DNA of 64,000 bases from an uncultured Isosphaeraceae bacterium (GTDB taxonomy: Bacteria; Planctomycetota; GCA-002687715). The notes beneath the pieces were generated by a model. That model saw only the letters and a program-made list of their open reading frames with translations, ran no database searches and had not been told where the DNA came from. This document shows, one piece after another, positions 17,697 to 57,701 of the stretch. A program made the position numbers and the translations under genes. How positions within the stretch are numbered: position 1 is the stretch's first letter; the number at the start of each line of letters is the position of its first letter. Location of the stretch: positions 28,613 through 92,612 of the forward strand of contig CAZDQF010000017.1 of NCBI GenBank assembly GCA_964507445.1, read 5' to 3'.

Positions 17697-19103
17697 TCAG
17701 GGCAGGAACCCGCGGGGGTTCTTGAGCTTGGCCGGCAGGTACGTGTCCAGCACGTAGTTCAGGCCCCATTTGGCGAGGGCCTGCTGCTCCGCCCTGACCC
17801 CCATCTTCAGCAGCTGCTGCATGGCCTTCGTCCACGGCTTGTGGGCCTTGAAGAACGGGTCGTTCTTCAAGGCGTCCTTGGCCCGCCTCACGTCCACGTC
17901 CTTCAGCGGGTGGGTCGGCAGCTTGTAGTCCAGGATGTCCTGGGGAGTCACCCCCAGGAAGCGAGCCTTGGGGACGCAGTAGAACTGGTTGATGTGGGCG
18001 GCGTTGCCCGATCCCACCTTCAGGCTGCGGTAGATGTTGCTGATCCCATAGGGGTCGCAATCCACGAAGGCGTAAACGGGGATCTTCTGGCTGTCCGACA
18101 GACGCCGGATGAACCGGCGGCAGGCCCGGGTGGGGACCCCGCTCATGGAGACGATCACACAGCGGGCATTGGCCGGGTAGGCGTGGTACTGCAGGCGCTG
18201 GAACATGCCGCCCGTCTCGATGGCGAGGATGAACCGGGCCTTGGTCCTGAACTTCAGGTGCTCCACCGAGTGCGGGATGGTGTAGGCGCCGGACCCGAAC
18301 TGGGTGCAGTCGATCTCGATCTGCTTGCCGGTGGCCGGATCGCGATCGATCACCACCAGCTCTCCCGCCACGGCGCCGCCATGCTCGTCCGGATAGAAGC
18401 GGAGCTGTTCTCGGGTGACGCCATCGAGGGAGAAGGTCGCCTCGATGTCATCCATGACCGTGTCCGACTCGGTCTGCTGATCGAACCGGGCGTCCCCCCA
18501 GTTCTTGCTCTGGTAGTAAGCGTCCCGCTTGGTGGCGAACGTGTCCTCGCGCACCATCTCCTTGGACAAGGCCATCATCCGCAGGGTCTGGGCGAAGGTC
18601 CGCACCGTGTTCACGGTCAGGGTACGGGTCTTGCGCTGGCGACCGATCTGGAAATAGCCCACGCGAGCGTCGTAGCGGACGTTGGAGAGGGCCCGCACGG
18701 GCAGACTGAGCTCGGGCTTGGCGCCCCGCTTGATGCGGGCGTGCACGCCCGCCGCCGCCTTGTCGATGGCCACGACCACCTTGGCCTTCTTCCACGCGTC
18801 CCGGCGAGCCCGCCTGCGGGACGCCCCGCGGGCCCGGCCACCCACCCCTGGTGGTAAGCCCTGGGGTTCATCCGCCGACTCCTGCCGAGGCAGCTCGTCC
18901 GCGGCGGCGTAGGCTCGCTTCCGCACGCTGACCGTGGCCTCCAGAGCGGCCTTGGGGGACGAACGGCCGCCGGCCGCGGGCTTCTTCCTCGCGGCGGGCT
19001 TCTTCCTGCTCGCCTTCTTCTTCGCGGCGGGCTTCTTCCTGCTCACCTTCTTCTTCGCGGCGGGCTTCTTGCGCTTGGCTGCGACCTTCTTCTTTCCGGC
19101 CAT
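17697..19103 (-). CDS. top6A: DNA topoisomerase VI subunit A (Spo11/Top6A) with a Lys/Ala/Pro-rich N-terminal tail
   Basis: Toprim motif YAFVDCDPYGISNIYRSLKVGS and a winged-helix region (…TLVRTFAQTL…). The first 55 or so residues are KKPAAKKK-type repeats. Its start lies 1 nt after the top6B stop. Confidence 0.85.
   Translation of the reverse strand: MAGKKKVAAKRKKPAAKKKVSRKKPAAKKKASRKKPAARKKPAAGGRSSPKAALEATVSVRKRAYAAADELPRQESADEPQGLPPGVGGRARGASRRRARRDAWKKAKVVVAIDKAAAGVHARIKRGAKPELSLPVRALSNVRYDARVGYFQIGRQRKTRTLTVNTVRTFAQTLRMMALSKEMVREDTFATKRDAYYQSKNWGDARFDQQTESDTVMDDIEATFSLDGVTREQLRFYPDEHGGAVAGELVVIDRDPATGKQIEIDCTQFGSGAYTIPHSVEHLKFRTKARFILAIETGGMFQRLQYHAYPANARCVIVSMSGVPTRACRRFIRRLSDSQKIPVYAFVDCDPYGISNIYRSLKVGSGNAAHINQFYCVPKARFLGVTPQDILDYKLPTHPLKDVDVRRAKDALKNDPFFKAHKPWTKAMQQLLKMGVRAEQQALAKWGLNYVLDTYLPAKLKNPRGFLP
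18976..19075. repeat. Imperfect roughly 39-bp tandem duplication (gcgggcttcttcctgctc[g/a]ccttcttcttcgcggcg) that encodes the KKPAAKKK tail of Top6A
   Basis: Read from the sequence; it is coding. Confidence 0.6.
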
Positions 19104-19104
19104 C

Positions 19105-20775
19105 TCAGAGCTTCCGACTACGCTCGAGGATGTCCTCGAGCCTGGCCACGGCCTTGTCCGTGTCCTTGTCCGACAGCTCCAGGATCTCCTGGAGCGCCAC
19201 GCCGATCTGGGGCAGGTAACGGGAGATGAAGTCGCGCTTCTTCATCTCGTCCGCCTCACGACGGCGGCGGGAGAGGAAGGCCCCGAGCTTGCGTCCGCAC
19301 TCGTTGAGGGCGAGGCGGATCTCCTTGATGATCTCCGGGTAGTGCGCCACCGCCTCCTTGCTCTCCGAGGTGAAGGGCACCCAGACGGACGCCACGTGAA
19401 CCAGGACGGTCAACGGGCCAACGGGCAACGCGCCTCGCGACTGCTGCAGGCCGTAGTTCTTCCACGACGTCCCGACAATGGCCTTGTTGATGGCGCAGGC
19501 GCCGGGCTGATACAGCAAGGGCACCCGGTTGGCCAGACGGAGCACCCGGGCCAGGTCGTCCGCGGGGAGGCTCCCCCCCCAGGCGATGCCGGCTTCAACC
19601 ACGAACGGGTTGCCCCGGTAGACCGCGGGCGGACGGGTGACGGCGGTGAAGAAGTCCGCGTCCACTTCCTTCTTGAGCCCTTCCAGGATCAGGTCCTGGC
19701 CCACCGGGACGACGCAATCCGTGGCGGGCGCCATGACCCTCGTCTTCTGGATGGCCTTGTAGAGCAGGTCCGCCTCTCGATTGGCGATGGTCGTGGGGCG
19801 AGCCTTGGGCGAGATCCCCGCCTGTTCGCAGATGGCGTCCGCCACCGCCGCGGACACCCTCGAGAACGTGTCCTGCAGCGCCCCCTTGAGGGTGCGTGCG
19901 CCGCTCTCCTTCATGAGGCGTGCGAGCACCCCCAGCTCCACGCCATGGGGGTGAGGCTTGATCTGCCTGGCGGGTTCCGGGACCACCTTGCAAGCGCGCC
20001 TGAACACCACCAGCTCCTCCCCCGGAGCGCGGTAACTGATGGCGGCGTGGGGGTTGGCCATGGCGGTCTGCTGCAGGTACTCGTCCACGGACTGCCGCCC
20101 CTTCAGGTAGCGACCCTCCAGCTCGATCTCCACCCGGGTCCCCGACCCCTTGCGGAAGCCCTTGGCCTCCCGCTCCCGGGACACCTCCGGACGGTTACGG
20201 GCGGTGTCGATGCGCACGTCCATTCGCACCGCCTTCCCGGTCCTCGAGGTGCGCGTGGTGATGCGCATGGGCTTGCCCGTGGTCAGCTGCCCGTACATCC
20301 CGGCGGCGGAGATGCCGATCCCCTGCTGACCGCGGCTCTGCTTCAGGCTGTGGAACTTGGAACCGTACAGGAGCTTGCCGAAGATCTTCCCCACCTGCGC
20401 CTTGACGATCCCCGGACCGTTGTCCTCCACGGCGACCACGAAGCGGTCGTCCTCACCCTCCACGGGGATGATCTCCACCAGGATGTCCGGCAGGATCTCC
20501 GCCTCCTCACAGGCGTCCACGCTGTTGTCCACCGCCTCCTTGATGGTGGTCAGCAGCGCCTTGCGGGGGTTGTCGAAGCCGAGGAGGTGCCGATTCTTGG
20601 CGAAGAACTCGGACACCGAGATCTCGCGCTGGCCGCGGGCCATGGTCTCCGCCGTGGCCTTGGTGCGCCTCGCCTTGGAGCGGGAAGGGGCCGCGCCGGA
20701 CGAACGCCCGACCGCCTTCTTGCGAGGCCGCTTCTTCGCCGCTGCCTTCTTCTTCCTGCCGCCGCCGACCGCCAT
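19105..20775 (-). CDS. top6B: DNA topoisomerase VI subunit B (GHKL/Bergerat ATPase) with a Lys/Arg-rich N-terminal tail
   Basis: …SEFFAKNRHLLGFD…, the Bergerat-fold ATP-lid VEDNGPGI, …GQQGIGISAA…, and a transducer domain. The N-terminal 45 or so aa are RKKKAAAKKRPRKK. Confidence 0.85.
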   Translation of the reverse strand: MAVGGGRKKKAAAKKRPRKKAVGRSSGAAPSRSKARRTKATAETMARGQREISVSEFFAKNRHLLGFDNPRKALLTTIKEAVDNSVDACEEAEILPDILVEIIPVEGEDDRFVVAVEDNGPGIVKAQVGKIFGKLLYGSKFHSLKQSRGQQGIGISAAGMYGQLTTGKPMRITTRTSRTGKAVRMDVRIDTARNRPEVSREREAKGFRKGSGTRVEIELEGRYLKGRQSVDEYLQQTAMANPHAAISYRAPGEELVVFRRACKVVPEPARQIKPHPHGVELGVLARLMKESGARTLKGALQDTFSRVSAAVADAICEQAGISPKARPTTIANREADLLYKAIQKTRVMAPATDCVVPVGQDLILEGLKKEVDADFFTAVTRPPAVYRGNPFVVEAGIAWGGSLPADDLARVLRLANRVPLLYQPGACAINKAIVGTSWKNYGLQQSRGALPVGPLTVLVHVASVWVPFTSESKEAVAHYPEIIKEIRLALNECGRKLGAFLSRRRREADEMKKRDFISRYLPQIGVALQEILELSDKDTDKAVARLEDILERSRKL

Positions 20776-20817
20776 GGGCCGGTCAGTATAGCGGCTGCGG
20801 ACCGACCGGTGCCCGGC

Positions 20818-31723: not shown

Positions 31724-33670
31724 CTACTTCCAGTGGAACCGGGCCCGCTGCTTCACGTGGCAGTCACGGCAGGAGGCGTCCGATTCCGACGGGATCGGCA
31801 CGTCCTGGAGGCGCGAGGCCCCCTCGGTTCCCCGATGGCAATCGGCGCAGTCGGCGTCCACGTGGCCACGACTGCGGTGCGAGAAAGTGTTGGGCTGGGG
31901 CCAGGACCGCATGAGCTCGCCGCCGGTGTAGACCGGGTCCCCTTCCAGGTGACACGCGTCGCAGTCCCCGCCGCCCACGTTGTCATGGTTCTCGTGACAC
32001 GGCGTGCAGGATCTGGCCTCCGCCGTGGTGCCGGGCACACTTGAAGACCGCAGGTCGTCCCCCATGGTGTGGCAGGAGAAGCAACCGTTCTTAAGGCCGG
32101 GCTTGCTGGTGTCCAGGTGCTTGCCGTGGGGGAACTGGTTGACCCCGATCAACCCCGGCAGCCCCGGACGCAGGCCCGCCTCGGGGACGCCGGTGTCATG
32201 ACACTCCGCGCAGGCGGCGTCGCCCGCCGGCCCGCGGTAGATCCCCTTGGTCAATCCCGCCGACGCCTCCCCGGAGACCACGTCGAGGTGACATGACCGG
32301 CACTCGCCGTCCGCCGCCGCGTCCATGGACGAGAGGTGCACGCCGTGCAGGAACGGTCGGTCCGCGAGCTTCGAAGCAAACACCTTGCCGTCGCGATGAC
32401 AGTCCGCGCAATCCTTCCCGCCGGTGTCGAACTCGTGCTGATGGTCCCGCAGGGCCAGGGCGTAGACGTGGGCCCCCACCGTGAGCTCCGCCCGGGCCAG
32501 GCGCTCCACGGTCTTCAATGGAGCCGCGTGCAGGGTCTGGTGGCACTGGGCGCAGCTGACCCCCTGGTCCGCGTCCGCCCCGTGCCACGTCGCCTGCCAG
32601 CGCACCGCCTCCGGCGCCGCCTCCGACCCGTGGCACTCCTGGCAGCGCTCGTACTTGATGCGTTTGAACTCCCGCTCCGGGATGCCCCGCGATGGATCGG
32701 ACGCCTGGGCCACGTCCGCGTACTCGTGGCAGGTCTCACAATCCTCGATCCGCATGGCGCCGGCGCCCTCTCCCATGGCCTCCGCAGACAGGTGCTTGTC
32801 ATGGGGGAAGGTGTCGTAGGTCAGCGCCACCCAGGGGGTGTCGTCACGGGGAGGCACCGGCGCGGTGATCTCCGGGATCAGGTCTCCGTGGCAGTCCACG
32901 CACGTGTCCTCCGCGCGCACGGAGGTCAGGCTCGCCGTGTCCGTGCCGCGATGATCCACGTGACACGGCTGACACGATTGCCCGTCCCAGGAGACGGGGT
33001 GGGTCGGGTTCTCCACGATGTCCGCGTGGCAGGCGCTGCAGGCGGAGGGAGGTGTCCCCACCCAGCCCGAGTGGCACGCCGCGCACGAGCCGTCCCCGTG
33101 CCCCGCCGCCCGGAGCGCCGCCAGCTGCTCCGGCGCGTGGGTCGCCCAGTACCCCGGCGTGTGCACGCGGGCCAGGGAGCCGGGGTTCACCAGGGGCTCC
33201 TCCACGGCGTCCACGAACGACAGGGCGAACAGCGCGCCCACCAGCACCACGGCGGCGTAGTTGCCCCAGCGCAGAGGGCGGAACCGGCCGAACTCCACCT
33301 CGTAGCGAGACCACCGCAGCGGGTCCTCCTTCTTGTCATAGAAGAAGGACTGCTCCTTGAGGGCGCAGGTGAGGGTCCCCTTCTCCTCGTCGATCTCGCA
33401 GGTGAACTTGGAGACCCCGATGACGACGCCGATCTTGCCCTCGCCCTTGATCTCCGTGCGCTCGTCCACGGAGACCCCGGCCATGTAGGTCCCGGACGAG
33501 GTCCCCAGGTCCTCGATGAAGAAGCGGCCGTCTTCGTGGGTGAACGCACAGTGACGTTCCGCGACCATGGGGTCGTCCACCACCAGGTCGCAGGTGGAGC
33601 GTGTCCCCACCACCCCCGCGCGGTTCTCGATGGTGGCGGTCGCGCCTTTCTTCTTCAGGACAATCGCCAC
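31724..33670 (-). CDS. FHA domain - transmembrane helix - multiheme cytochrome c (15 CxxCH) fusion protein
   Basis: N-terminal FHA signature (VGTRSTCDLVVDDPMVAERHCAF…IEDLGTSSGTYMAGV), a TM segment (YAAVVLVGALFALSFV), then 15 CxxCH motifs. The probable start is GTG 33670, 1 nt after the upstream stop; the track ORF begins at GTG 33736. Confidence 0.8.
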   Translation of the reverse strand: MAIVLKKKGATATIENRAGVVGTRSTCDLVVDDPMVAERHCAFTHEDGRFFIEDLGTSSGTYMAGVSVDERTEIKGEGKIGVVIGVSKFTCEIDEEKGTLTCALKEQSFFYDKKEDPLRWSRYEVEFGRFRPLRWGNYAAVVLVGALFALSFVDAVEEPLVNPGSLARVHTPGYWATHAPEQLAALRAAGHGDGSCAACHSGWVGTPPSACSACHADIVENPTHPVSWDGQSCQPCHVDHRGTDTASLTSVRAEDTCVDCHGDLIPEITAPVPPRDDTPWVALTYDTFPHDKHLSAEAMGEGAGAMRIEDCETCHEYADVAQASDPSRGIPEREFKRIKYERCQECHGSEAAPEAVRWQATWHGADADQGVSCAQCHQTLHAAPLKTVERLARAELTVGAHVYALALRDHQHEFDTGGKDCADCHRDGKVFASKLADRPFLHGVHLSSMDAAADGECRSCHLDVVSGEASAGLTKGIYRGPAGDAACAECHDTGVPEAGLRPGLPGLIGVNQFPHGKHLDTSKPGLKNGCFSCHTMGDDLRSSSVPGTTAEARSCTPCHENHDNVGGGDCDACHLEGDPVYTGGELMRSWPQPNTFSHRSRGHVDADCADCHRGTEGASRLQDVPIPSESDASCRDCHVKQRARFHWK

Positions 33671-33671
33671 C

Positions 33672-35147
33672 CTACATCCCCACGATGTCCGCCGGGTCCA
33701 CCCTGGAGATGGCGCTGCACGGACAGTTATAGACACACGCTTCGAACGGCAGGCCCGCGCACAGGTCGCACTTGATGGCCTTCTTGTCGGGCTTCTTGGG
33801 TTTCTTGGGCTTCTCCGCCTCCTCCGAAGCCGCCTCCGGTTCCTGCGCCGGTGTCCCCTTGGAGCGCTTGATGAAGGGCAGCATGCGGGAGAAGAATGAG
33901 CGCCGCTCCTTCTCTTCGCCGCCGGGCTCCGTCAGGGTGGCCATGCGGATGACGCCGTAGGGGCACTTGATCTCGCACGCCATGCATCCGGTGCAGTTGG
34001 GCAGGATGAAGTGGATGGCGCCGTTGACGTCACGGCGGATGGCGCCGTAGTTGCAACCGATCATGCACTCGGGGACCGTGCAGTTGTAGCAGGCGCTGGT
34101 GAGCATGACGTCGCCGGTCTTGATGCCACGCTTGGACAACCGGGGGACACCGTCCTCGTGGACCGAGACGCAGGCCTCCACGCAGGCGTTGCATCGGGTG
34201 CAGCGCTTGAGATCGATGAGCAGGGCCTCCCCTCCCTTCACCGCCTCCTTGCCCACCATGAGGTCCATGGCCGCGGTCCTGGACAGGTCCACCACAGGCG
34301 CCGGGTCGTTCTTCACCTCCTGCCCCTGCTCCTGGGCCAGCAGCAATCCCACGGTCTGCTGGATGCGGGTCCCCGCCTGCACGTCGCGCTTGTACAGGGC
34401 CAGGAAGACCTCTCGGCGCAGCCGCACAACGTCCACCCGGGTCATGGCCACCATGCTGGATGGCCAGGTCTTGTCATCCGCCAGGGACCGCTCACCGAAG
34501 GAGGAGTTGTCCCGCAGGAACGCCACCACCTTGGAGCCCTCCGGCGTGGCCCGCTCTTCCTTGACGATGCCGCTGCGGACCAGATAGACGGCGTCCGCCT
34601 CCTTGCCCTCTTCTGCGATGGCCTTGCCCTCGGCGAACGTCAGCAGCTCCGCGTCCTCCGCCACGGCGGCGAGGACGTGACGATCAACGCCCTTGAACAC
34701 CGGCGCCGACCTCAGGTGGACCGCGAGGGCCCGCTCCCGGTATCGCTCGTCGATCAGGTCCCTGAACGACCCGCCGCCCTTGTAGAGGGTCTTGAACAGC
34801 GGCGCCCCCACCACCATCAGGGTGCAGTGGGCCTCCGCCTTCACGGTGCTGAACTGAGGCTGGTTGGCCAGGGCCGTCATCTCTCCGAACCAGTCATGGA
34901 CCCCGTGGGAACCCATGTTCTCGACGCTGCCGTCCGACTCCGTCCGGTAGGCGGTGGCGATGCCGTCCAACACCACGAACAGCTCTTCCAGGAACTCCCC
35001 CTGCCGGACCAGGGTGTCCCCTGGCATGGCTCGGCGAAACTCCACCTCGCTCTCAGCCGCAGCCATGGCCTTCGGCTTCACCTTGCCGAACAACGGGACC
35101 TGCGTCAGCAGGGCCTTGAGTTCTCCAAACTGCGCAGCGCCGCTCAT
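33672..35147 (-). CDS. Cytoplasmic protein with two cyclic-nucleotide-binding (cNMP) domains and C-terminal multi-cluster 4Fe-4S ferredoxin domains
   Basis: cNMP signatures (…WFGEMTAL…, …FGERSL…); Cys motifs CTRCNACVEAC, CYNCTVPECMIGC, CTGCMACEIKCP and CDLCAGLPFEACVYNCPC; no signal peptide. Confidence 0.8.
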   Translation of the reverse strand: MSGAAQFGELKALLTQVPLFGKVKPKAMAAAESEVEFRRAMPGDTLVRQGEFLEELFVVLDGIATAYRTESDGSVENMGSHGVHDWFGEMTALANQPQFSTVKAEAHCTLMVVGAPLFKTLYKGGGSFRDLIDERYRERALAVHLRSAPVFKGVDRHVLAAVAEDAELLTFAEGKAIAEEGKEADAVYLVRSGIVKEERATPEGSKVVAFLRDNSSFGERSLADDKTWPSSMVAMTRVDVVRLRREVFLALYKRDVQAGTRIQQTVGLLLAQEQGQEVKNDPAPVVDLSRTAAMDLMVGKEAVKGGEALLIDLKRCTRCNACVEACVSVHEDGVPRLSKRGIKTGDVMLTSACYNCTVPECMIGCNYGAIRRDVNGAIHFILPNCTGCMACEIKCPYGVIRMATLTEPGGEEKERRSFFSRMLPFIKRSKGTPAQEPEAASEEAEKPKKPKKPDKKAIKCDLCAGLPFEACVYNCPCSAISRVDPADIVGM

Positions 35148-35149
35148 GA

Positions 35150-36160
35150 TCAGTACCAGATCACCGAGACCGTGTGGACGATGGCGAAGCCGAGCAGCAA
35201 CAACGAGCAGGGCACGTGGACGACGCGCCAGACGTTGATGCTGAACTTGACCCGGGCAGCGGCGGCCAGGTCATCGAGGATCCGGCGTCGCTGGGAGACC
35301 AGCACCATGACATCTTGCAGATCCTGCCGCCCCTCAGGCGCCTCCTCCATCATGCTCATGAGAGCGGTGCGGTGCACCAGGGCCCGGGTCGTCGCCTTCC
35401 CCGCCCCCTTGAGCCGCTTCACCTCGTGCGCGTCCAGCCCATCGTAGGCTTCCCGGATCTTGGCCTTCAGGCTCCGCTCCAGCACGAAGGCCTGCTCGTG
35501 GTTCATGTCGCGCTCCGCGCGGGTCATCCAACGCGGGCCCAGGGCGAACAACACCGTACCGACGACGCCGGTGACGATGACCAGCACGGCCAGCCCGTTG
35601 AGGATCACCCCCATGGGCGAGACCATGGAGAACCCTCCGTGGACCCACAAGGTGACGCCGGAAGCCAGACCCAGGTAGACGTGGAAGTGGAGCCACCTGG
35701 ACATGCGCCCGAGGGGTTCCGTGGGCTCCACCCCGACGATGAACGCCGGTCCACCGACCGCTCCCGGAGTGACCTTGGCCTTACAGATCCGATCGGCCCC
35801 GTGAGCCGCCAACTCCCGCTGCGCCATCTCCCTGATCTCGGCGGCGTTGTTCAGCAACCCCAGGAGCACCCGGCGTCGGATGTCGTTCAGGCCTTGCTCC
35901 GCCTGCTCCAGCTGCTCCAGGGGCACCTTCAGCTTGAACTCGGGCGAGATCCCCAGGCGATGCATGAACTTGCGCAGAGAGTAGACGCAAACCGCCACCA
36001 TGATCCCCAACGTGGTCCACCCACTGGCGAGCACGATGTCCACGTCGGAGCCTTCCCGGGCCCCCGCAGCGCTCCCAGCGGCCGCCAACCACCAGACGAA
36101 CCCGCCTGACACGATGACGGCGACCACGGACCACCAGCTCCTGAACAGGGAGACGTTCAC
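35150..36160 (-). CDS. 5-TM integral membrane protein with conserved intramembrane histidines (possible b-type haem or quinone-interacting subunit)
   Basis: TM helices containing WLHFHVYLG…WVHGG and RVVHVPCSLLLLGFAIVHTV. It overlaps the upstream gene by 4 nt and sits 2 nt from the downstream gene. Confidence 0.55.
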   Translation of the reverse strand: MNVSLFRSWWSVVAVIVSGGFVWWLAAAGSAAGAREGSDVDIVLASGWTTLGIMVAVCVYSLRKFMHRLGISPEFKLKVPLEQLEQAEQGLNDIRRRVLLGLLNNAAEIREMAQRELAAHGADRICKAKVTPGAVGGPAFIVGVEPTEPLGRMSRWLHFHVYLGLASGVTLWVHGGFSMVSPMGVILNGLAVLVIVTGVVGTVLFALGPRWMTRAERDMNHEQAFVLERSLKAKIREAYDGLDAHEVKRLKGAGKATTRALVHRTALMSMMEEAPEGRQDLQDVMVLVSQRRRILDDLAAAARVKFSINVWRVVHVPCSLLLLGFAIVHTVSVIWY

Positions 36161-38193
36161 CGGCGTCTCCCAGGGAAGCCATCGAGCTCGCCGCCGAGCG
36201 ATTCAGCGATCCGCCTCCACTCCGGACGCGTCTTCCCCGAACCGGTGAGCCCCTTCTCGATCAGCTCGTGCCAGTGGCAGTCCGCACAACCTTCCGGGTC
36301 GCTCCGGGACGCCTGCCGCGCGCCCCTGTGATAGCCGTTGCGCTCGTACTTCATGTCCGCATGGACCAGCACGTCCTCCCGGACGTTGAACACGGCCGCG
36401 CCGGGCAGGTGGCAGGTGCCGCACTTCTGTTCCGCCGGATAGGGGTGCCACTGAGCCCCGGCGACGCCCGTCACCCGGACCCGGAAATCGCTCACCGCGA
36501 CGTCCGCCTCGGGGCCGTCAGGGCCGTGGCAACGGGCGCAGGACTGGACGTAGTCCCTCCCCTTGTCCGCGCAGATCTCCGGACGCTCGCCGTGGTCGTG
36601 GCACGCCGAGCAGTCCATGGCGCCGGGCAGGGTCCCGACCCCTGGCGCCCCTCCCTGCGCCGGCACGTGGCAGGACACGCAACCGTCCTCGAGGAGCGGG
36701 TCTCTCAACGCCTTCGCCGTCATGTGGACGTCGTGGGGGAACGTCGGCACCCTGCGAGGAGCCACCGTCTCCTCGCTCCGGATCACGCTCAGCTCGCCGC
36801 CCTTGTGACACTCTCCGCACGCCTTGTCGGAGTAGAGGCTCAGGTCCTCGGGCCGGGTCGACCCCGTGATGTCGCCGTGGCAGGCCACACAGTCCTGGTT
36901 GGTGGGGTTCGGCGGCAGGTGGGTGTCATGAGAGAACGCCTTGCCGCTGATACGAGAGGGCAGCCCGCCCTCGATCCTGGCCCGATGGCACTTGCGACAG
37001 TCTTCCCCCTGCACCAGCTTCCCGCCCCGGCGGGTGATCATGGGGTGGTCGTGGCTGGTCACGGCGAACCCCACCGGCCGGGTCCGCGACACCTCCACCT
37101 GGGGGCGGAGAGTCTTCATGGGGCCGTCGCCGAAGGCGTGGCACGGCGCGCAGCTCTCCACCTTGCCGTGGTCGTCGATTCCCTGGGCGTCCCGCACCGC
37201 CAGCGGGTTGTCCTCGAGGCGGTCGTGGCATTCCGCGCAGGCGCTGTAACGGCGCTCCCGGAACTTGCTCTGCAGCCCGTAGGTGCGGCCTTCCTCCGCC
37301 GGCTCGTGGCAGGCGAGGCACCCCTTGGAGCGCAACGCCGGGTCCTTGTTCAGCGCATCCGCGTCCATGTGAGGACCGTGGGGGAAGGTCCCCAACAGGA
37401 CACACTCGTGAGCAGCGCGTTCCAGCTGCTCGGGCCCCAGCAGTCCCTCCCCCGACCGGTCCTTGTGACAGTCGGCGCAAGAGTCCAGCTTCACCATGGA
37501 GGGGCCGATGGCGGCGCCTGGGTCCGTGAGGAGATCGCCGTGGCATGTCCCGCACGCCGCCGCGTCCGCGCCGCTGCCCGCGGGCAGGTGCTCATCGTGG
37601 CGAAACGCCGCGGGCCGAGGGCCCGTCGCCTTGCCGAGGTAGGCGTTCAGTCCATCGACGAATTCGACGTTCTTCGTCCCCGACGGGTCGGCGTCGATGG
37701 CGTTCGCACCCTCCGGATCGTGACACTCGAAGCAGGTGTGCCACCCGGGCCGGAACTTGATGTCACCGCGCCTGCCCAGATCATCCGGGCGTCCGGAAGC
37801 CCCCTCGTGGCATCGCTTGCAGTCGTAGGCCGCATGGGACCAGTGCCTGAACGGACGCCCGTCAGCGCGGAGCACGTCCAGGTCTTCCAGGAACGACGGA
37901 CTCGTGTCCTCTCGGTCGAGCTCCAGGGCTGGGGCGCCTCCGCCGCTGCTGTGGCAGGCGTCGCACACCTGCTGCGGGTCCCGGGTCTCGGTCTCGCTCT
38001 TGTAGAGATGGCAGCCCCGACAATCCCTGGCGTATTCGCTGCCGCCCTCCTGGCGCCAGCCCGCACGGACGTGGTCCGCGTGTCGAAACGGCTTGCTGGT
38101 CGACGGCGGCGAGTCGCTCCGCTCGTTGGAGGACGGCACCATCAGGACGAGCTGGGCGGTGGTCACAACCGCCAGGGCCAGAGACCGTCCCAT
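36157..38193 (-). CDS. Secreted multiheme cytochrome c (17 CxxCH)
   Basis: ATG at 38193 precedes a signal peptide (MGRSLALAVVTTAQLVLMVP); 17 CxxCH motifs. The start lies 2 nt after the stop of the tandem-FHA gene. Confidence 0.8.
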   Translation of the reverse strand: MGRSLALAVVTTAQLVLMVPSSNERSDSPPSTSKPFRHADHVRAGWRQEGGSEYARDCRGCHLYKSETETRDPQQVCDACHSSGGGAPALELDREDTSPSFLEDLDVLRADGRPFRHWSHAAYDCKRCHEGASGRPDDLGRRGDIKFRPGWHTCFECHDPEGANAIDADPSGTKNVEFVDGLNAYLGKATGPRPAAFRHDEHLPAGSGADAAACGTCHGDLLTDPGAAIGPSMVKLDSCADCHKDRSGEGLLGPEQLERAAHECVLLGTFPHGPHMDADALNKDPALRSKGCLACHEPAEEGRTYGLQSKFRERRYSACAECHDRLEDNPLAVRDAQGIDDHGKVESCAPCHAFGDGPMKTLRPQVEVSRTRPVGFAVTSHDHPMITRRGGKLVQGEDCRKCHRARIEGGLPSRISGKAFSHDTHLPPNPTNQDCVACHGDITGSTRPEDLSLYSDKACGECHKGGELSVIRSEETVAPRRVPTFPHDVHMTAKALRDPLLEDGCVSCHVPAQGGAPGVGTLPGAMDCSACHDHGERPEICADKGRDYVQSCARCHGPDGPEADVAVSDFRVRVTGVAGAQWHPYPAEQKCGTCHLPGAAVFNVREDVLVHADMKYERNGYHRGARQASRSDPEGCADCHWHELIEKGLTGSGKTRPEWRRIAESLGGELDGFPGRRR

Positions 38194-38195
38194 GG

Positions 38196-39707
38196 TCACG
38201 CGCCGATCCCCAGCACCGCCGGGAACCAGAAGAACAGCACCACGAGGACGACGAGTAGAAGCGCGAGCGCCACGACCGCGACCTTCAGCCCTGCGCCGCC
38301 ACCGCTCTGCTGCCGCATGACGCTCAGGAACGGAGCCTTCGCCATGGCATCGCACCACTGAGCCACCGTCACCCGACCCGACAACAGCAGCGCCTCGCCC
38401 GGGTGCTCCGAATCCGATGCCGCCTCTGCGCTCACCCGCTTCATGGCCGACGCGCTCACCACGTCCTCCGCCGAGAGGATCTCCAACGCATCATGCCAAC
38501 TCTGAACGGAGACGCGGTTCCCGCCGCTGCCCACGTCCGCGACCCAGAGCGCGTCCACGGTTCCGAACCGGACATGGGTGTCCGGATGGAGCTCTCGAGG
38601 CTGATCCGGCATCACCCGATCGGGACCCAAGAACGTGCCGTTGCGGCTGTCCAGATCGTGCAGGAAGAACCGCCCACCCTGGAACCGGATCCGGGCGTGG
38701 GTCGAGGAGACCGCGTCGTGAGACAACCGGCAATGGACACCCTTCTCCTGGTCGTCACTCCTCCCCACCACGACGTTGGGGCCGGAGATATCAAACCGGG
38801 TTCGGATGGCCTCCGTGGCGATGATCAACCGGGCGTTCGCAACCCGGAACGCCGCCATCTCCGCCAGCCCCGCCGCAGCACCCGCCTCCGCCAGCGCTTG
38901 ACCGACGCCATGAGCGAACACGGTCCGCGGTTCGGACGGGGCCGGGCGAGGCTCCTCCGCTTCCGCCTCCTTGGCCGCCGCTTCCTTCGCCGCAGCTTCC
39001 TTGGCCGCCGCCTCCTTGGCCGCCGCCTCCTTGGCCGCCGCCTCCTTGGCCGCCGCTTCCTTGGCCGCCGCTTCCTTGGCCGCCGCCTCCTTGGCCGCAG
39101 CTTCCTTGGCCGCAGCTTCCTTGGCCGCAGCTTCCTTGGCCGCCGCTTCCTTGGCCGCCGCTTCCTTCGCCGCCGCTTCCTTCGCTGCCGCTTCCTTCGC
39201 CGCCGCTTCCTTCGCCGCCGCTTCCTTGGCCGCCGCTTCCTTGGCCGCCGCTTCCCTGGCCTTCTCTGCTTCGAGGCTCCGGATCTTCTCTGCCGCCAAC
39301 CTCGCCTGTTCGGCCGCCGCTCGCGCCTGCTCAGCGACCGCACCGGGCAGCGTGCTCTGCTCGGCGAAGGCGAGCTCCGCTGCGCTGCCCGTCCCCTCCT
39401 GAGGCCCACCCGACACGACGATCGTGGTTCGGCCGATGGTGAGAGTCAGCCCACAGCGGATGGGGTAGGACTCGCCATCGCTGAGGATGGGGCCGGACTC
39501 AATGAGGGTCTTGTTCGTGCTACCACAATCCAGAATCGCGAGGCCACCGTCGACGCCCTCGGCGAACTTGGCGTGAAACGCCGACGCCTTCGCATCATCA
39601 AGAACGAGGTCGTTGCTCGGATGACGTCCTACTCGAAGACCGGCGTGACACGGGACGGTCCTCGGTGCCTTGTCGGGCTCCTCAACCCGCAATTCCCACT
39701 TGCTCAT
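38196..39707 (-). CDS. Tail-anchored protein with two FHA domains separated by an (A/E)AAKE pentapeptide-repeat spacer
   Basis: N-terminal FHA (LRVGRHPSNDLVLDDAKASAFHA…ILDCGSTNKT) and C-terminal FHA (VVVGRSDDQ…VSSTHARIRF…LHDLDSRNGTF); about 21 copies of KEAAA; a C-terminal TM helix (VAVVALALLLVVLVVLFFWF). Confidence 0.8.
   Translation of the reverse strand: MSKWELRVEEPDKAPRTVPCHAGLRVGRHPSNDLVLDDAKASAFHAKFAEGVDGGLAILDCGSTNKTLIESGPILSDGESYPIRCGLTLTIGRTTIVVSGGPQEGTGSAAELAFAEQSTLPGAVAEQARAAAEQARLAAEKIRSLEAEKAREAAAKEAAAKEAAAKEAAAKEAAAKEAAAKEAAAKEAAAKEAAAKEAAAKEAAAKEAAAKEAAAKEAAAKEAAAKEAAAKEAAAKEAAAKEAAAKEAEAEEPRPAPSEPRTVFAHGVGQALAEAGAAAGLAEMAAFRVANARLIIATEAIRTRFDISGPNVVVGRSDDQEKGVHCRLSHDAVSSTHARIRFQGGRFFLHDLDSRNGTFLGPDRVMPDQPRELHPDTHVRFGTVDALWVADVGSGGNRVSVQSWHDALEILSAEDVVSASAMKRVSAEAASDSEHPGEALLLSGRVTVAQWCDAMAKAPFLSVMRQQSGGGAGLKVAVVALALLLVVLVVLFFWFPAVLGIGA
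38942..39260. repeat. About 21 copies of a 15-bp tandem repeat (gccgccgcttccttg and variants) encoding the (KEAAA)n spacer
   Basis: Read from the sequence (39001-39240 is almost pure repeat); coding, in frame. Confidence 0.8.
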
Positions 39708-39757: not shown

Positions 39758-43618
<3,861 letters not shown>

Positions 43619-43630
43619 CTTCCGACTCCC

Positions 43631-45556
43631 CTACCAGGTGAACGTGAGCTCAGCGAACGCGTGCCACAGCAGATCGTCGCTCTCGTAGATCTTCCGCAAC
43701 CCACCGCCGGGCCTGAGCACAGAGCCACCGAAGGTGAAGATGATGTTGTTGGTCAACAGCGGCCGGTACTGGACCCCCATGAGGGCCTCCACGCCGATGT
43801 CACGGGGGATCTCCTCCAGCTCCACCAACGTCTCCAGCGGGTTGGTGGTGGCGAAGCGCAGCCCCTGAATCGCGGCCGTCATCTTCACCGTCGGGGTGAG
43901 CTCGATGTCCGTGCCGATGCCGTAGATGGCGATGCCCGGATTGACGAACGCCGCCTGCCCCTCGAACTTGGACGCCTGCAGGTCCGCCAGCGGGCTCAGC
44001 CTGTTGGTCAGGAAGGTCCCGAACAGGGGCACCGCCTGACGGTTCCAGTAGGAGAACTCGCCGCCGGCGAAGTTGGGAGCGTCCACGATGGCGTCGAATC
44101 CGCCGCCCTTGCCGTCTCGCGCGTCGTGGTCGCCAGACCCGTAGAACACGTAGGCCTTGAGCCGGAACCAGTCCCAGTCATAGGAGACCTCCACGGCCGC
44201 CAGCTGCGCGTCGATGTCGATCTCCCGCGCGGCGATGGGGTCTTCCGTGTCGTGCCCCCAGACCTGGTAGACGGCCCCCGTGAGGTTGAAGCGTCCGATG
44301 TGGCCGTCGAACGCCCACCCCAGGTAGTAGGTGTCGATCTCGTGCTCCTGGAAGCTCCCGATGGGGGTCGGTCGCGTCAGGAAGTCGTTGTCGTTGAAGT
44401 GGACCCCGCCGCCGTCGTGGCTCCAATGGAACGACAGCTCCTGATTGAATCCCTTGAAGGGGAAGTCGAAGCGGTAGACGTTGGCGATCAGCACCTCCTG
44501 GTTGCGATCATCGAACGTGTTGAGCTCCGAGTTGGTGTTCTTCTCCAGCAGGTGGAAGTAGGCCAGGTTGTACTGCCACTTGTTGTCGTCCGCGTTGCCG
44601 AAGATCCGGGCGCCCAGATTCACGTCGTCAAAGATGAAGCCTCGGAAGTCACTCCGAAACTCGAGGATCCCCGCCTCGAAAGACAAGAAGTCGTAGCGGT
44701 CGTTCCAGTCCAGCAGGTGGATCTCGATGAACGCTTCTTCCAGCGCGATGTCGTCGGTCAGGCGATCCGTGCCCTGCCCGGGGTTGATGTTGACCCCGCC
44801 GGTCTCTTCCAGGTTCAGGTAGGTGACGTTGGCGGCGAGGACCGCCTTCAACCGCCAGTCCACGGGCTTGAAGAACTGCTGGCCCTTGAAGATGTCGATC
44901 TCCAGGGCGGTGATGTTCAGGAGGAAGTCCTGGTTCCCGTCACCGAAGAAGGGCTCGTTGTTGGGAACGGGGCCGGTGTTCCCGGTGCCGATGGGCACCT
45001 TGCGCGTCTCCAGGATGGAGAAGCTCTCCAGCTCCAGGGAGAGGAACACGTCATCGCCGATGATGGGGTAGTCCCCCTTCAGCGTGTTCAGGTTGTACGG
45101 GTCGAGGGAGCTCTTCCCCTTGTTGATCACGTAGGCGGGGTTGAACAGGGGGACCGGGTCAATGGCCCAGCGATCAGGCATGGGCTCGAAGTGACGCGGC
45201 TTCTCCTGGGGAGCGGTCACCGGCTTGCTCTCGGCGACGGTCACCGGCTTGCTCTCGGCGACGGCCACCGGCTTGCTCTCGGCGACGGCCACCAGCTTGC
45301 TCTCGGCGACGGCCACCGGCTTGCTCTCGGCGACGGCCACCGGCTTGCTCTCGGCGACGGCCACCGGCTTGCTCGACGCCACCGGACGGTCAACCGCCAC
45401 GGGGTCCGACCCAACCCGCGAGCCCACCATGGTCGGCTCAGGATGCGGAGGGTCCTCCGGCGGGGGCCGGTGCCCAGCGCTGGAGCAGGCCGCAACCAAC
45501 AACACGCAACCCCCAAGGCACGACCGCCCCAGGAATCTCCGCGAGCTTGTATCCAT
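43631..45556 (-). CDS. Putative outer-membrane beta-barrel (porin-like) lipoprotein with an N-terminal (ESKPVAVA)n repeat
   Basis: Lipobox LLVAAC; a G/D/N/aromatic-rich body with alternating hydrophobics; C-terminal …AFAELTFTW-COOH, the aromatic terminus typical of OMPs. It ends 12 nt upstream of the lipoprotein cytochrome gene. Confidence 0.6.
   Translation of the reverse strand: MDTSSRRFLGRSCLGGCVLLVAACSSAGHRPPPEDPPHPEPTMVGSRVGSDPVAVDRPVASSKPVAVAESKPVAVAESKPVAVAESKLVAVAESKPVAVAESKPVTVAESKPVTAPQEKPRHFEPMPDRWAIDPVPLFNPAYVINKGKSSLDPYNLNTLKGDYPIIGDDVFLSLELESFSILETRKVPIGTGNTGPVPNNEPFFGDGNQDFLLNITALEIDIFKGQQFFKPVDWRLKAVLAANVTYLNLEETGGVNINPGQGTDRLTDDIALEEAFIEIHLLDWNDRYDFLSFEAGILEFRSDFRGFIFDDVNLGARIFGNADDNKWQYNLAYFHLLEKNTNSELNTFDDRNQEVLIANVYRFDFPFKGFNQELSFHWSHDGGGVHFNDNDFLTRPTPIGSFQEHEIDTYYLGWAFDGHIGRFNLTGAVYQVWGHDTEDPIAAREIDIDAQLAAVEVSYDWDWFRLKAYVFYGSGDHDARDGKGGGFDAIVDAPNFAGGEFSYWNRQAVPLFGTFLTNRLSPLADLQASKFEGQAAFVNPGIAIYGIGTDIELTPTVKMTAAIQGLRFATTNPLETLVELEEIPRDIGVEALMGVQYRPLLTNNIIFTFGGSVLRPGGGLRKIYESDDLLWHAFAELTFTW
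45205..45394. repeat. About 7 copies of a 24-bp tandem repeat (ctcggcgacggccaccggcttgct) encoding ESKPVAVA
   Basis: Read from the sequence; coding, in frame. Confidence 0.75.
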
Positions 45557-45767: not shown

Positions 45768-47498
45768 ATGAGAGAGAACTGCGTCCTGATCCGGCCGGCG
45801 GTCACCGTGCTGCTGATGCTGTGCCTCGGCACCACCCTCGGTTGCGGAGGCGCCGGCGGAGATGTGCCCGGGCAGTTGTTCTCCCCCGACTTCGGGACCG
45901 TAGATCCCCTGACGGCGGCGGACGTTCAGCTCATCGTCGAACGCGCGGTCGCCTCCATCGCGGCTCCCGATTTCCACGTGGCGGTCGTGGACCGACGCGG
46001 ATTTCCTCTCGCCGCGTTCAGCACCGCCGGCCCCGCCATCACCGACGAGGCGAACATCGCCCTGAGCCTCGCCCGCACCACGGCGTTCTTCTCCAACAGC
46101 CAGGCGCCGTTGACGTCGCGCACGGTCCAGGCCATCTCCACCTTCCACTTCCCGGCCACCTTCGGCAACGCCTTCGTACCCTCGGTCTGTCCCACCTCGG
46201 GGGTCGCCGGGTGCATGGACACGGCCATCGCTCCGCAGCAGGCCACCACCGGAGTGGACGGGACCCCGCAAGGGCCCCTGTGGCAGATCAACGCCACCAA
46301 CCGGGGGGCTCCCATCGCCGATCCGGATGGGCTCCCCAACTTCAACCTCCCGGTACAGACCGTCCGCCCGACGTTCTTCAACCCGGGACAGCAGTACCCG
46401 CGGTCCACCAACCTGGACGGCACGTTCCCGAGCCCCGGCATCACGGTGCTGCCCGGAGCCGTCCCCCTGTACAAGGACAACCTGGAGGGGACCATGAAGC
46501 GGCTGGTGGGCGGCGTCGGTGTCTTCATCCGGCCCGGCGGCGCCGCCGCGGACCCGGACATCCTGGGGGCGGAGTTCGCCGCGTTGAGCGGAGCCACCGG
46601 CGTCCCCGCTGGGGGGCCCACAGACTTCCGTCTGCCGGGGGTCCCCAACACGGGCGCGGTCTACCTGAACGGCATCCTCCTGCCCAACGTGGAGCAGACC
46701 ACCCTGCCCGCCGGCGCAGCGCCAGGGGCCCCGCCGCCACCGCCGGGTGACCCGCTCTGGATCGTGAACCCCATGGCCGGCGATGTCCCTGCCGACGGCT
46801 ACCTCATCGGCCCCCGGGCCAGCATGGAACCCAACGGGCCCACCCTCGCGGAGGTCATGCAGGTCATCGACCAGTGCCAGGCGACGGCGGACCTGAACCG
46901 CTCCGCCATCCGCCTTCCTCTGGGCAGCACCTCCAAGATCATCGCCACCGTGGTGGATACACGGGGCCTGATCCTCGCCCACTTCCGTATGGAGGACACC
47001 CTGACGGACGCCGTGGACGTGGTCCCCGCGAAGGCCCGCACCGTGGCCTACTACAGCCAACCCGGCGGTCCAGCGGCAGCGGATCAGTGGCCCGGGTTCC
47101 CCGTGGACCCGGTGAACGGGGTCGCCGTCACCACCACAGCCCTCGGCTTCCTGTCCCAGCCCTACTACCCGCCGGGCATCAGCTCCTCCGGCGTCCAGGG
47201 CCCCCTGTTCCCGCGCGCCGTGGACAACCAGCTCCCCGTGCAGGCCACCCTCATGGGCGCCGCGCCGCCGGACCCGGGCTACCAGAACGGCCTGATCTTC
47301 TTCCCGGGGGCGGTCCCCCTCTACCGCAACGGGGTGCTCATCGGCGCCCTCGGGGTCTCCGGAGACGGGGTCGAGAACAACGACTTCATCGCCGCCGGAG
47401 GAGCGGTCTCCTTCGAGCCTCCCCCGGCCCTCCGGATCGACAACTTCTTCTTCGACGGGGTGCGGATCCCCTACCTGAAGTTCCCCACCAACCCCTGA
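45768..47498 (+). CDS. Lipoprotein with two GlcG/HbpS-like (DUF336, haem/tetrapyrrole-binding-type) domains
   Basis: Lipobox LGCG; two copies of the GAVPL(Y)…GVSG…D…A motif (GAVPLYKDN…LVGGVGVF and GAVPLYRNGVLIGALGVSGDGVENNDFIAAGG). It is divergent from the porin-cytochrome operon. Confidence 0.55.
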   Translation: MRENCVLIRPAVTVLLMLCLGTTLGCGGAGGDVPGQLFSPDFGTVDPLTAADVQLIVERAVASIAAPDFHVAVVDRRGFPLAAFSTAGPAITDEANIALSLARTTAFFSNSQAPLTSRTVQAISTFHFPATFGNAFVPSVCPTSGVAGCMDTAIAPQQATTGVDGTPQGPLWQINATNRGAPIADPDGLPNFNLPVQTVRPTFFNPGQQYPRSTNLDGTFPSPGITVLPGAVPLYKDNLEGTMKRLVGGVGVFIRPGGAAADPDILGAEFAALSGATGVPAGGPTDFRLPGVPNTGAVYLNGILLPNVEQTTLPAGAAPGAPPPPPGDPLWIVNPMAGDVPADGYLIGPRASMEPNGPTLAEVMQVIDQCQATADLNRSAIRLPLGSTSKIIATVVDTRGLILAHFRMEDTLTDAVDVVPAKARTVAYYSQPGGPAAADQWPGFPVDPVNGVAVTTTALGFLSQPYYPPGISSSGVQGPLFPRAVDNQLPVQATLMGAAPPDPGYQNGLIFFPGAVPLYRNGVLIGALGVSGDGVENNDFIAAGGAVSFEPPPALRIDNFFFDGVRIPYLKFPTNP

Positions 47499-54885: not shown

Positions 54886-55059
54886 CCGCACGAGCCCCAG
54901 GAGACGACCCCATCCGATCCCCCCAGGAGGGGCTGCCCTCACGGTCGGCCCCCCGTGTCCGCTCCTCAACCCGCAAAACCCTTTGCGTCCGGCGGCCGTA
55001 TCGGTCGATAAACCCATTGGTGGTGGGACCGTGCCCTCACTCGAGGCACGAGGGGAACC

Positions 55060-55980
55060 GTGAGCTTGGACTTCAGTCGCTATCTGTCACCCGCCGGAGA
55101 TCCGGCGGGGAATCGGACGACCTCCATGGTCGCTCCGGCACGTCTGCGATCCGTCCAGGAGCTGGTCCGCCGCCTGCCACCGCTCCCCGGCATGATGTTC
55201 GAGTTGATCACCGAGCTGGGGGAACCGGACGCCGAGATCGACCGGCTGGAAGATCACATCTCCCGCGACCCCACCCTGACCACCCGCTTGCTGAAGATGG
55301 CCAACAGCGCCTTCTTCGCGCCGGCCGTACCCGTGGCCACCGTCGGCCACGCCCTCATGATCCTCGGGCTGGACGCCGCCCGAAACCTGGTCCTCGCCAC
55401 CGCCATGAGGGCCGCCATGGGCGCTTCACGATCCTCGCCGACGCACCAGGGAAGAGAGGTCTTCCGCCACAGCCTCGCCGTCGCCATCGCAGCCCGTCGA
55501 CTGTGCCGACTGCGAGACACCCGTGACCCGCACGAACCCGACCCGTTCGTAGCGGGCCTGCTCCACGATGTCGGCCTGGTAGCCCTCGCGCCGCTCTACG
55601 CCAACGAGGCGGGCGTCCTGGAATCCGCCGGAGGGCTCTCACCGGAGGTGGAACGGAGCGTCCTGGGGATTGACCACGTCCTCGCGGGACGCATGGTGCA
55701 CGCCCACTGGAAACTCCCCGACTCCCTGCTGGACCCGATCCTCGGCCACCACTCCGATCCACGAGACCTGGATGGAGGGTCCACCACCACCATCGTCGCC
55801 CTGGCCGACGCCCACGCGGAGGCCACGGGATGGGAGCCTCACCCGGCCACGAACCGTCACGGCGCCCTGGAGCGGCGAGACGCCATCATCGCCCACGTCG
55901 GTCTCGAACCGGACCGAGTCCATGACGTCCTCGACGGCATGGAGCAGGAGTTCGCCAGCTTCCTGGGGTCCGCGTCATGA
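55060..55980 (+). CDS. HDOD-domain signalling protein
   Basis: …DPTLTTRLLKMANSAFF… and GLLHDVG are characteristic of HDOD. Confidence 0.75.
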   Translation: MSLDFSRYLSPAGDPAGNRTTSMVAPARLRSVQELVRRLPPLPGMMFELITELGEPDAEIDRLEDHISRDPTLTTRLLKMANSAFFAPAVPVATVGHALMILGLDAARNLVLATAMRAAMGASRSSPTHQGREVFRHSLAVAIAARRLCRLRDTRDPHEPDPFVAGLLHDVGLVALAPLYANEAGVLESAGGLSPEVERSVLGIDHVLAGRMVHAHWKLPDSLLDPILGHHSDPRDLDGGSTTTIVALADAHAEATGWEPHPATNRHGALERRDAIIAHVGLEPDRVHDVLDGMEQEFASFLGSAS

Positions 55981-57626: not shown

Positions 57627-57701
57627 GCGGGCTCGGCCGGCGTCCCTCCGGTGATGACAACCGGGGCGCACGGATCGCCCGCGAGTCCGTAGAATGGGCT
57701 C

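Follow-up and report, generated by a model that had tools for sequence, protein, structure and literature searches.

Whether a cyclic nucleotide could control the entry of electrons into a chain of multihaem cytochromes is the question raised by one gene in a 64,000-nucleotide stretch of DNA (the window) from an uncultured Isosphaeraceae bacterium of the Planctomycetota (GenBank assembly GCA_964507445.1, contig CAZDQF010000017.1, positions 28,613 to 92,612 of the forward strand). The gene encodes a protein in which two cyclic-nucleotide-binding (CNB) domains are followed by a polyferredoxin, and we refer to its product as the CNB-FeS protein. A first-pass annotation, made from the letters of the DNA, had proposed that cAMP or cGMP gates electron input through this protein on the cytoplasmic face of the conduit. 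Our analysis kept the domain organization and the cytochrome setting, and suggested that the CNB-FeS protein is probably the cytoplasmic iron-sulfur (Fe-S) subunit of a trans-membrane electron conduit in which canonical binding of cAMP or cGMP is unlikely.

Full-text literature searches returned no description of a CNB-polyferredoxin or of its gene cluster. Database labels for the protein are generic, such as [quoted passage not shown], and identical proteins are present on marine metagenome contigs.

Tandem CNB domains joined to a ferredoxin

The GC content of the window is about 68%, and a GC content at third codon positions (GC3) above 0.8 was the criterion that separated real genes from spurious open reading frames (ORFs). 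The CNB-FeS gene has a GC3 of 0.87 and thus matches the genuine genes of the window. A scan of the N-terminus and topology found no hydrophobic N-terminal segment, Tat motif or transmembrane (TM) segment in the protein, and its location is predicted to be the cytoplasm because all three are missing. The two CNB modules ahead of at least four cysteine clusters, and the lack of a signal peptide, were therefore as first annotated. Searches with Pfam and NCBIfam models found no output domain (helix-turn-helix [HTH], kinase, GGDEF or others). The NCBIfam matches were all below threshold, to CNB-containing models and to models of the HycB/HydN/ArrB/NrfC type.

Several Fer4 models of Pfam span residues ~309-404 of the C-terminal half. 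The cysteines of this half form four groups, C316/319/322/326 (CxxCxxCxxxC), C353/356/361/365 (CxxCx4CxxxC), C385/388/391/395 (CxxCxxCxxxCP) and C460/463/471/475 (CxxCx7CxxxCP), and all 16 were invariant in an alignment of 53 homologues with 39 to 83% identity. The spacing fits [4Fe-4S] clusters, as had been supposed: the four motifs aligned one for one, at E values of about 1e-9, with the solved four-cluster ferredoxins ArrB (6cz7_B), the polyferredoxin subunit of AOR (8c0z_C), HycB3/4 (7qv7) and HycB (7z0s_B). Between motifs III and IV lies a variable insert rich in Lys, Glu and Pro (residues ~403-458), for which the AlphaFold2 (AF2) model has a predicted local distance difference test score (pLDDT) below 50. 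ArrB has an insert at the same spot.

The test for membership in a named equivalog (HycB, HydN, ArrB, NrfC, HybA, DsrO, HmcB and others) failed, with NCBIfam scores of 18 to 40 bits against cut-offs of 200 to 1000. Judged by its sequence, the Fe-S half belongs with the cytoplasmic, HycB/HydN-like electron wires that have four [4Fe-4S] clusters, and it falls outside every named equivalog. HycB and HydN resemble the CNB-FeS protein also in having no Tat signal. Unlike the polyferredoxins of the DmsB/HycB/HydN/ArrB group, however, the window protein alone has an N-terminal CNB tandem, and its operon lacks their catalytic or NrfD-type partners: domain scans of the seven-gene cluster and its flanks found no molybdopterin, hydrogenase or formate dehydrogenase catalytic subunit and no NrfD-type anchor.

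In the N-terminal half, the Pfam model cNMP_binding (PF00027) matched two stretches with a score of 120.8 bits (cut-off, 27.5), and the AF2 model of residues ~10-275 has a pLDDT above 90. The best matches of this half, by HMMER among the sequences of solved structures and by Foldseek among folds (E, 1.7e-21), were the tandem CNB-A and CNB-B domains of the regulatory subunits of protein kinase A (PKA), so that the closest likeness is to the two-CNB arrangement of PKA/PKG regulatory subunits. The CNB fold is shared with the CRP/FNR transcription factors as well, and weak NCBIfam matches to FtrB, CRP and NtcA are confined to the CNB part. Unlike those factors, the CNB-FeS protein has no HTH, its C-terminal half is a ferredoxin, and its scores are far below the family cut-offs.

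In a canonical CNB cassette, a Gly-Glu pair contacts the ribose 2'-OH and an Arg binds the cyclic phosphate (R82 in CAP; R209 and R333 in PKA RI-alpha). The two cassettes of the window protein were placed by HMMER alignment to yeast Bcy1 and by BLASTP to a manually entered sequence of Escherichia coli CRP. The cassette of domain A (residues 87-103, nucleotides 34839-34889) reads FGEMTALANQPQFSTVK, also given as FGEMTALANQPQFSTV; Gly88 and Glu89 are present, and the Arg position is held by Q98, followed by F99. A by-eye alignment had put F99 at the Arg position, but HMMER and BLASTP both give Q98. In domain B, the cassette FGERSLADDKTWPSSMV (residues 217-233, nucleotides 34449-34499) has Gly218 and Glu219, and its Arg position falls on W228 in the HMMER register to Bcy1 or on P229 in the BLASTP register to CRP, with no Arg either way. 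Inspection of the pockets thus found the ligand Glu in both domains (E89 and E219) and the ligand Arg in neither.

Among the 53 homologues, all of the Planctomycetota type, G88, G218 and E219 are invariant and E89 is conserved in at least 90%. W228 is invariant in 53 of 53. The next position varies widely; the five closest homologues have Arg there, and the window protein has Pro. The motif of domain A differs from clade to clade. The clade of the window protein has QPQ[FY][AS]T (also given as NQPQF[AS]TV), one Planctomycetota subclade has the canonical QPRSATV (P0021, P0022, P0028-33, P0041-46 and others), and other clades have QPE[LP]AT or QPSLAT. Canonical cassettes are also found in distant full-length relatives: in both domains of a Nitrospinota protein (L020), in domain B of a Gemmatimonadota protein (L019) and in domain A of an Acidobacteriota protein (L022).

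Since the phosphate-binding Arg is replaced in both cassettes, canonical binding of cAMP or cGMP by the CNB-FeS protein of the window is unlikely. Because the clade has conserved its replacement motifs, the pockets look non-canonical, retuned and not decayed. Control by cyclic nucleotides may be ancestral, or may be present elsewhere in the family and not in the window protein, since canonical cassettes survive in the sister subclade and in the Nitrospinota relative. A parallel is known from trypanosomes, in which a cAMP-independent PKA regulatory subunit lacks the cassette Arg, has the Gly-Glu pair, and binds the nucleosides inosine and guanosine through a "ribose binding cassette" (PMC10959531; see also PMC6440977). 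Trypanosome PKA regulatory subunits (6hyi and 6flo) were among the top Foldseek matches of the CNB half. The window protein differs from the trypanosome subunit in being bacterial, in being fused to an Fe-S wire instead of regulating a kinase, and in its replacement residues, Gln-Phe and Trp.

The membrane partner and its genetic linkage

The CNB-FeS gene lies in a cluster of seven genes, all on the minus strand and separated by gaps of -4 to 50 nucleotides (Table 1). With c-type cytochromes of 17, 15 and 10 haems as its neighbours, the gene is indeed located inside a cytochrome operon. The gene for the 15-haem cytochrome begins 1 nucleotide past its stop codon.

The gene upstream encodes a His-rich protein that had been suggested as a membrane haem b or quinone subunit. 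AF2 (pLDDT, 82) and hydropathy both gave five TM helices, confirming the number first annotated, and two soluble inserts of about 90 residues. By the positive-inside rule, the inserts (residues 63-150 and 212-305, with 13 and 18 Lys plus Arg) are predicted to be cytoplasmic, and the short loops and the C-terminus periplasmic. The protein has 10 His, four of which are invariant in 24 homologues; these are H160 and H174 on TM3 and H315 and H329 on TM5, 14 residues apart in each pair. Searching with a profile at E <= 1e-3 picked out 2127 relatives among 1.84 billion representatives, and the family comprises about 2100 representatives at 50% identity. In 49 distant members (about 22% identity), the sole invariant positions were K64, H160, H174, G198, G201, W311, H315 and H329. 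The longer family members (P0189, P0194 and others) contained no additional Pfam domains.

Close homologues of the TM protein matched DUF4405 (11 of 24; best E, 9.3e-6). The distant relatives matched Ni_hydr_CYTB, a prokaryotic cytochrome b561 model, most often (18 of 49, at 1e-7), followed by DUF4405 (11 of 49) and Ferric_reduct (6 of 49). For one DUF4405 protein, haem b binding has been demonstrated by experiment, and its four central His are arranged like those of MsrQ and PepSY_TM (PMC11334425). The invariant, evenly spaced His and the matches of the relatives support the suggested role as a haem b subunit; the TM protein very probably carries haem b and is a putative dihaem cytochrome b. 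On the basis of the predicted topology, H160 and H315 would ligate the inner haem on the cytoplasmic side and H174 and H329 the outer haem on the periplasmic side.

The gene set is conserved across genomes. All seven genes are found in unchanged order at 60% identity on a 4.3-Mb contig (L004) and at 48% identity in a second locus (L005). In every Planctomycetota locus with enough flanking DNA, the order of the double-FHA, TM, CNB-FeS and FHA-15-haem genes is constant, and in most of them the 17-haem cytochrome gene is near this core set. The TM gene is directly upstream and the FHA-15-haem gene directly downstream of the CNB-FeS gene in the Planctomycetota loci L001-L008, L010-L018 and L021. 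Complete copies keep counts of 17 and 15 haems down to 37% identity, truncated ORFs counting fewer. In metagenome-assembled genomes (MAGs) of Gemmatimonadota, Nitrospinota and Acidobacteriota, the CNB-FeS gene is followed directly by that of a shorter TM homologue, and one further locus (L036) has the order polyferredoxin, TM protein, FHA-cytochrome.

Gene fusions add to this picture. In the MAG "Deltaproteobacteria bacterium D1-CHI-08" (JAVJQW010000061.1; L023:7869-10046), a single ORF of 726 aa joins two CNB domains, four Fe-S motifs and the dihaem TM protein. Both 14-spaced His pairs are present in it, and its TM part lacks the two cytoplasmic inserts of the window protein. This natural (Rosetta-stone) fusion argues for a physical association of the two proteins, with the Fe-S domain predicted at the cytoplasmic end of TM1, and it supports the earlier suggestion that polyferredoxin and TM protein act together at the cytoplasmic face. 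In some lineages (P0075 and P0114), the CNB-FeS protein carries a fused FHA domain of its own.

In one Planctomycetota subclade, the clusters also contain a gene with the domain order FHA-FAD_binding_6-NAD_binding_1-Fer2 (L006:3527-5122, L007:5890-7695, L011, L013 and L018). From its domains, the product is predicted to be an FHA-containing NAD(P)H:[2Fe-2S] reductase. Separately, a Planctomycetaceae MAG (IP29b_bin.4; L024:3278-8945) has two tandem, larger CNB-FeS paralogues (about 940 to 960 aa from stop to stop) ahead of the TM homologue.

A proposed electron conduit and competing explanations

We consider it probable, with a good share of doubt, that the CNB-FeS protein serves a trans-membrane electron conduit as its cytoplasmic Fe-S subunit, and that the CNB and FHA domains are non-canonical regulatory or adaptor domains. 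The overall chain would run from four [4Fe-4S] clusters through two haems b to about 42 haems c. The four clusters would form a wire that docks, by way of the two large cytoplasmic loops, on the TM protein, in which two bis-His haems b would be stacked across the membrane. Electrons would then pass to the periplasmic FHA-anchored 15-haem and the 17-haem cytochromes, and probably on to the 10-haem LVIVD lipoprotein.

Electrons would most likely leave the cytoplasm, passing from a low-potential donor there to the periplasm or the cell surface, because of the typical potential order of [4Fe-4S] clusters, haem b and haem c and because of the NAD(P)H-reductase-like gene in sister clusters. The likely donor in the sister lineages would be this adjacent FHA-FAD/NAD(P)H-[2Fe-2S] reductase. 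The PKA-like CNB tandem would serve as a regulatory or adaptor module, either binding another ligand, perhaps of the ribose type, or acting ligand-free, and the FHA domains on the remaining cytoplasm-facing components would work alongside it. Electron export by this route would be electrogenic and non-conserving, and this would make sense of CNB and FHA modules that control it tightly at the post-translational level. The sequences themselves show the domain content, the Cys, His and cassette residues with their conservation, the synteny, the fusion and, by the positive-inside rule, the topology; whether cofactors are bound, how the proteins dock, which way electrons flow and any regulation of the conduit are inferred.

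Several observations weigh against this proposal. The Fe-S domain has an AF2 pLDDT of only 50 to 70. The TM protein of the window had no Pfam match at E <= 0.01 and no significant NCBIfam match, its only weak matches being Ferric_reduct (E, 0.21; 12.1 bits versus a cut-off of 28) and CopD (E, 0.97), and Foldseek found no solved structure for it at E <= 0.001. Proteins of the b561/HyaC/FdnI type are normally quinone-reactive, and the membrane subunit could be a quinol/quinone site and not a pure through-conduit. No gene for a cytoplasmic donor was found in the window, and a tblastn search for the FHA-reductase-like donor gave just an FHA match. The electron direction is argued solely from typical cofactor potentials. 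Finally, the FHA domain of the 15-haem cytochrome (residues 1-105) has, family-wide, Ala in place of the Ser of SxxH and Ser/Thr in place of the Asn of NG. Control by phospho-Thr is not certain, and not all FHA domains of the cluster need read phospho-Thr in the classical way, because this one lacks the canonical Ser and Asn.

The original idea, that cAMP or cGMP binds both CNB domains and gates polyferredoxin electron input to the conduit, draws on two intact and confidently modelled CNB folds, on the Gly-Glu pair in both cassettes, and on relatives with canonical cassettes, a Planctomycetota subclade having Arg-Ser-Ala in domain A and the Nitrospinota protein being canonical in both domains. 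Set against these are the loss of the phosphate-contacting Arg, with W228 at one of its two possible registers in domain B invariant in the 53 homologues, and the finding of no cyclase or phosphodiesterase gene in the cluster. In mutants of PKA, CAP and HCN, loss of the cassette Arg cuts the affinity for cyclic nucleotides by orders of magnitude, and we consider cAMP/cGMP gating here to be quite improbable. On the other hand, the tandem may sense another small molecule, such as a nucleoside or a ribose-containing metabolite, and thereby exert allosteric control over docking or electron transfer. The ribose contacts of the Gly-Glu pairs are invariant or nearly so, and the replacement motifs and the invariant Trp are conserved in the clade and not decayed; however, the conserved aromatics F99 and W228 could fill the pocket instead, much as an intrinsic ligand fills the CNB pocket of KCNH channels. 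With the binding of inosine and guanosine by the Arg-less trypanosome subunits (PMC10959531) also in its favour, this reading is possible, although we hold it tentatively.

A different objection concerns the membrane protein, which might be a cytochrome b that reacts with quinol or quinone, as do HyaC, FdnI and CybB. In that case the polyferredoxin would link a cytoplasmic redox partner with the quinone pool, quinol would supply the periplasmic cytochromes, and electrons would not run directly from the Fe-S clusters to the periplasm. Ni_hydr_CYTB, the members of which are quinone-reactive, is the commonest model among the distant relatives. However, that match is limited to the His-bearing helices, a single-TM FHA-anchored cytochrome is always adjacent, and the placement of the Fe-S fusion in the deltaproteobacterial ORF at the cytoplasmic end of the TM part, with the cytochromes on the other face, fits through-transfer; coupling to quinone appears unlikely to us. 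It could also be proposed that the CNB-FeS protein acts in redox sensing or signal transduction instead of carrying electrons, with its clusters reporting the redox state of the conduit. The cluster is rich in signalling domains (two CNB and several FHA), and the window encodes no catalytic subunit or donor. But the protein has no output domain, the clusters of sister lineages contain the NAD(P)H-reductase-like gene, and four clusters in the DmsB/HycB arrangement are a hallmark of electron wires, sensors typically having one cluster. We regard the sensor as the least probable of the explanations considered here.

Beyond the electron-conduit reading that we prefer, a broader and decidedly tentative proposal can be made. 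The set of double-FHA protein, dihaem b protein, CNB-polyferredoxin and FHA-cytochrome might be an unrecognised, widespread, quinone-independent and post-translationally controlled machine for electron export (or import). In such a machine, cytoplasmic electrons from NAD(P)H or ferredoxin would be wired through two haems b to about 40 periplasmic haems. Flux or assembly would be switched by phospho-Thr recognition through FHA and by a CNB sensor that would read cAMP or cGMP in some lineages and be retuned to a non-cyclic ligand here.

The gene cluster, related systems and implications

Table 1. Features of the CNB-FeS gene and its cluster (window coordinates)
Feature	Position	Strand	Details	Basis
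CNB-CNB-[4Fe-4S]x4 protein	33672..35147	-	491 aa; ATG start; cytoplasmic (predicted)	Pfam, alignments, AF2, Foldseek
CNB domain A	34773..35093	-	residues ~19-125	HMMER to Bcy1 (3of1), BLASTP to CRP, family columns, AF2 pLDDT >90
CNB domain B	34362..34715	-	residues ~145-262	HMMER, BLASTP to CRP, family columns
Four-cluster ferredoxin domain	33693..34235	-	residues ~305-485	16 invariant Cys, four motifs
Putative dihaem cytochrome b, 5 TM, DUF4405/cytochrome b561-like	35150..36160	-	336 aa	conserved His, AF2, hydropathy, relatives' HMM matches
Cytoplasmic FHA, one TM helix (residues ~135-158), periplasmic 15-haem c-type cytochrome	31724..33670	-	648 aa	
17-haem c-type cytochrome, N-terminal signal/anchor	36157..38193	-	678 aa; 4-nt overlap with start of TM gene	
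Double-FHA protein, (AAKEA)n spacer, C-terminal TM anchor	38196..39707	-	503 aa; both FHA canonical	
Lipoprotein-like, 10 CxxCH and LVIVD (beta-propeller) repeats	39758..43618	-	1286 aa; at cluster head in L004, L005, L008, L012	
Lipoprotein-like protein, function unassigned, first gene of cluster	43631..45556	-	641 aa; conserved in L004, L005, L014, L016, L017	

Signalling-type domains, CNB or FHA, are present on every cytoplasm-facing component of the cluster. The spacer between the two FHA domains of the double-FHA protein is encoded by a 15-bp tandem repeat of about 20 copies with 94% matches (window 38963-39261). A second tandem repeat, of 24 bp (6.7 copies, 97% matches; window 45214-45374), translates into a repeated peptide of 8 residues and is located close to the 5' end of the gene for the 641-aa lipoprotein-like protein. 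Searches of PDB sequences with the latter protein and with the LVIVD decahaem protein gave nothing useful. An identification of the LVIVD protein as ExtM/N/O of the selenite/tellurite operon was rejected, as the NCBIfam score is far below cut-off and covers only c3-type haem stretches, and a mention of LVIVD in a Tenderiales preprint concerns an unrelated surface protein. A scan for promoters and terminators was uninformative.

Divergent from the operon head lies a gene for a protein of 576 aa whose C-terminal domain is HbpS-like (haem-degrading/haem-sensing; window 45768-47498, plus strand). About 10 kb from the FHA-rich operon, a gene for an HDOD-domain protein is followed by one for a GAF-SpoIIE protein, a PP2C-type Ser/Thr phosphatase (window 55012-57626, plus strand); the two genes are a possible Ser/Thr-phosphorylation signalling element. 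The cluster is flanked by sulfatase, PSCyt1/PSCyt2/PSD1 and DUF1501 genes, which mark a Planctomycetota genome, and a PSCyt1-PSCyt2-PSD1 protein followed by a DUF1501 protein (window 57693-61300, plus strand) is a typical planctomycete gene pair that agrees with the assigned taxonomy. Elsewhere in the window, the adjacent genes for topoisomerase VI subunits A (TP6A_N/Toprim) and B (transducer/HATPase) are found at 17697-20817 on the minus strand. Topoisomerase VI is an archaeal/eukaryotic-type enzyme that is uncommon in bacteria.

Among known systems, the TM protein is most readily compared with the dihaem TM cytochromes of the DUF4405, MsrQ, PepSY_TM, ferric reductase (NOX-type) and cytochrome b561 families, with which it shares two 14-spaced His pairs on two TM helices. 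NOX and Fre-MsrQ follow the same logic, in which a cytoplasmic reductant feeds two stacked haems and an extracytoplasmic acceptor. Unlike these cytochromes, the TM protein of the window is below every Pfam threshold and has five TM helices with two cytoplasmic inserts of about 90 aa. Its partner is a polyferredoxin instead of a flavoprotein or flavinylated protein, the acceptors are multihaem cytochromes, and no apbE gene was found in the cluster.

The Hmc and Tmc complexes of sulfate reducers and the CbcL, ImcH and Cbc systems of Geobacter are similar by analogy and not by homology, in that periplasmic multihaem cytochromes, a membrane haem b protein and cytoplasmic Fe-S proteins link the redox pools on both sides. 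Membership in Hmc/Tmc failed (TmcA, 56.7 bits versus 114; HmcB, 20.4 versus 420). The window cluster differs from Hmc/Tmc in lacking a NarI-type cytochrome b, NrfD and a CCG/HdrD-like Fe-S protein, whereas CNB and FHA domains are absent from the Hmc, Tmc and Cbc systems.

Electrons are known to reach periplasmic or extracellular multihaem cytochromes from the cytoplasm by way of the quinone pool (CymA, ImcH and CbcL) or of complexes of the Hmc/Tmc type, and to our knowledge these routes are regulated transcriptionally. The conduit proposed here is built of known cofactor modules, and it is the combination of subunits and the regulatory load that are undescribed. If the proposal is true, Fe-S clusters would be wired directly to haem c by way of haem b, with a signalling domain (CNB or FHA) on every cytoplasm-facing part, and this would imply that respiratory electron export is controlled quickly and at the post-translational level. 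Many uncultured Planctomycetota, marine and other, have conserved the module, and the pair of CNB-FeS and dihaem b proteins recurs in Nitrospinota, Gemmatimonadota, Acidobacteriota and one deltaproteobacterial MAG. The family also provides CNB pockets that range in nature from canonical to Arg-less, as material for studying the evolution of ligand specificity in bacteria.

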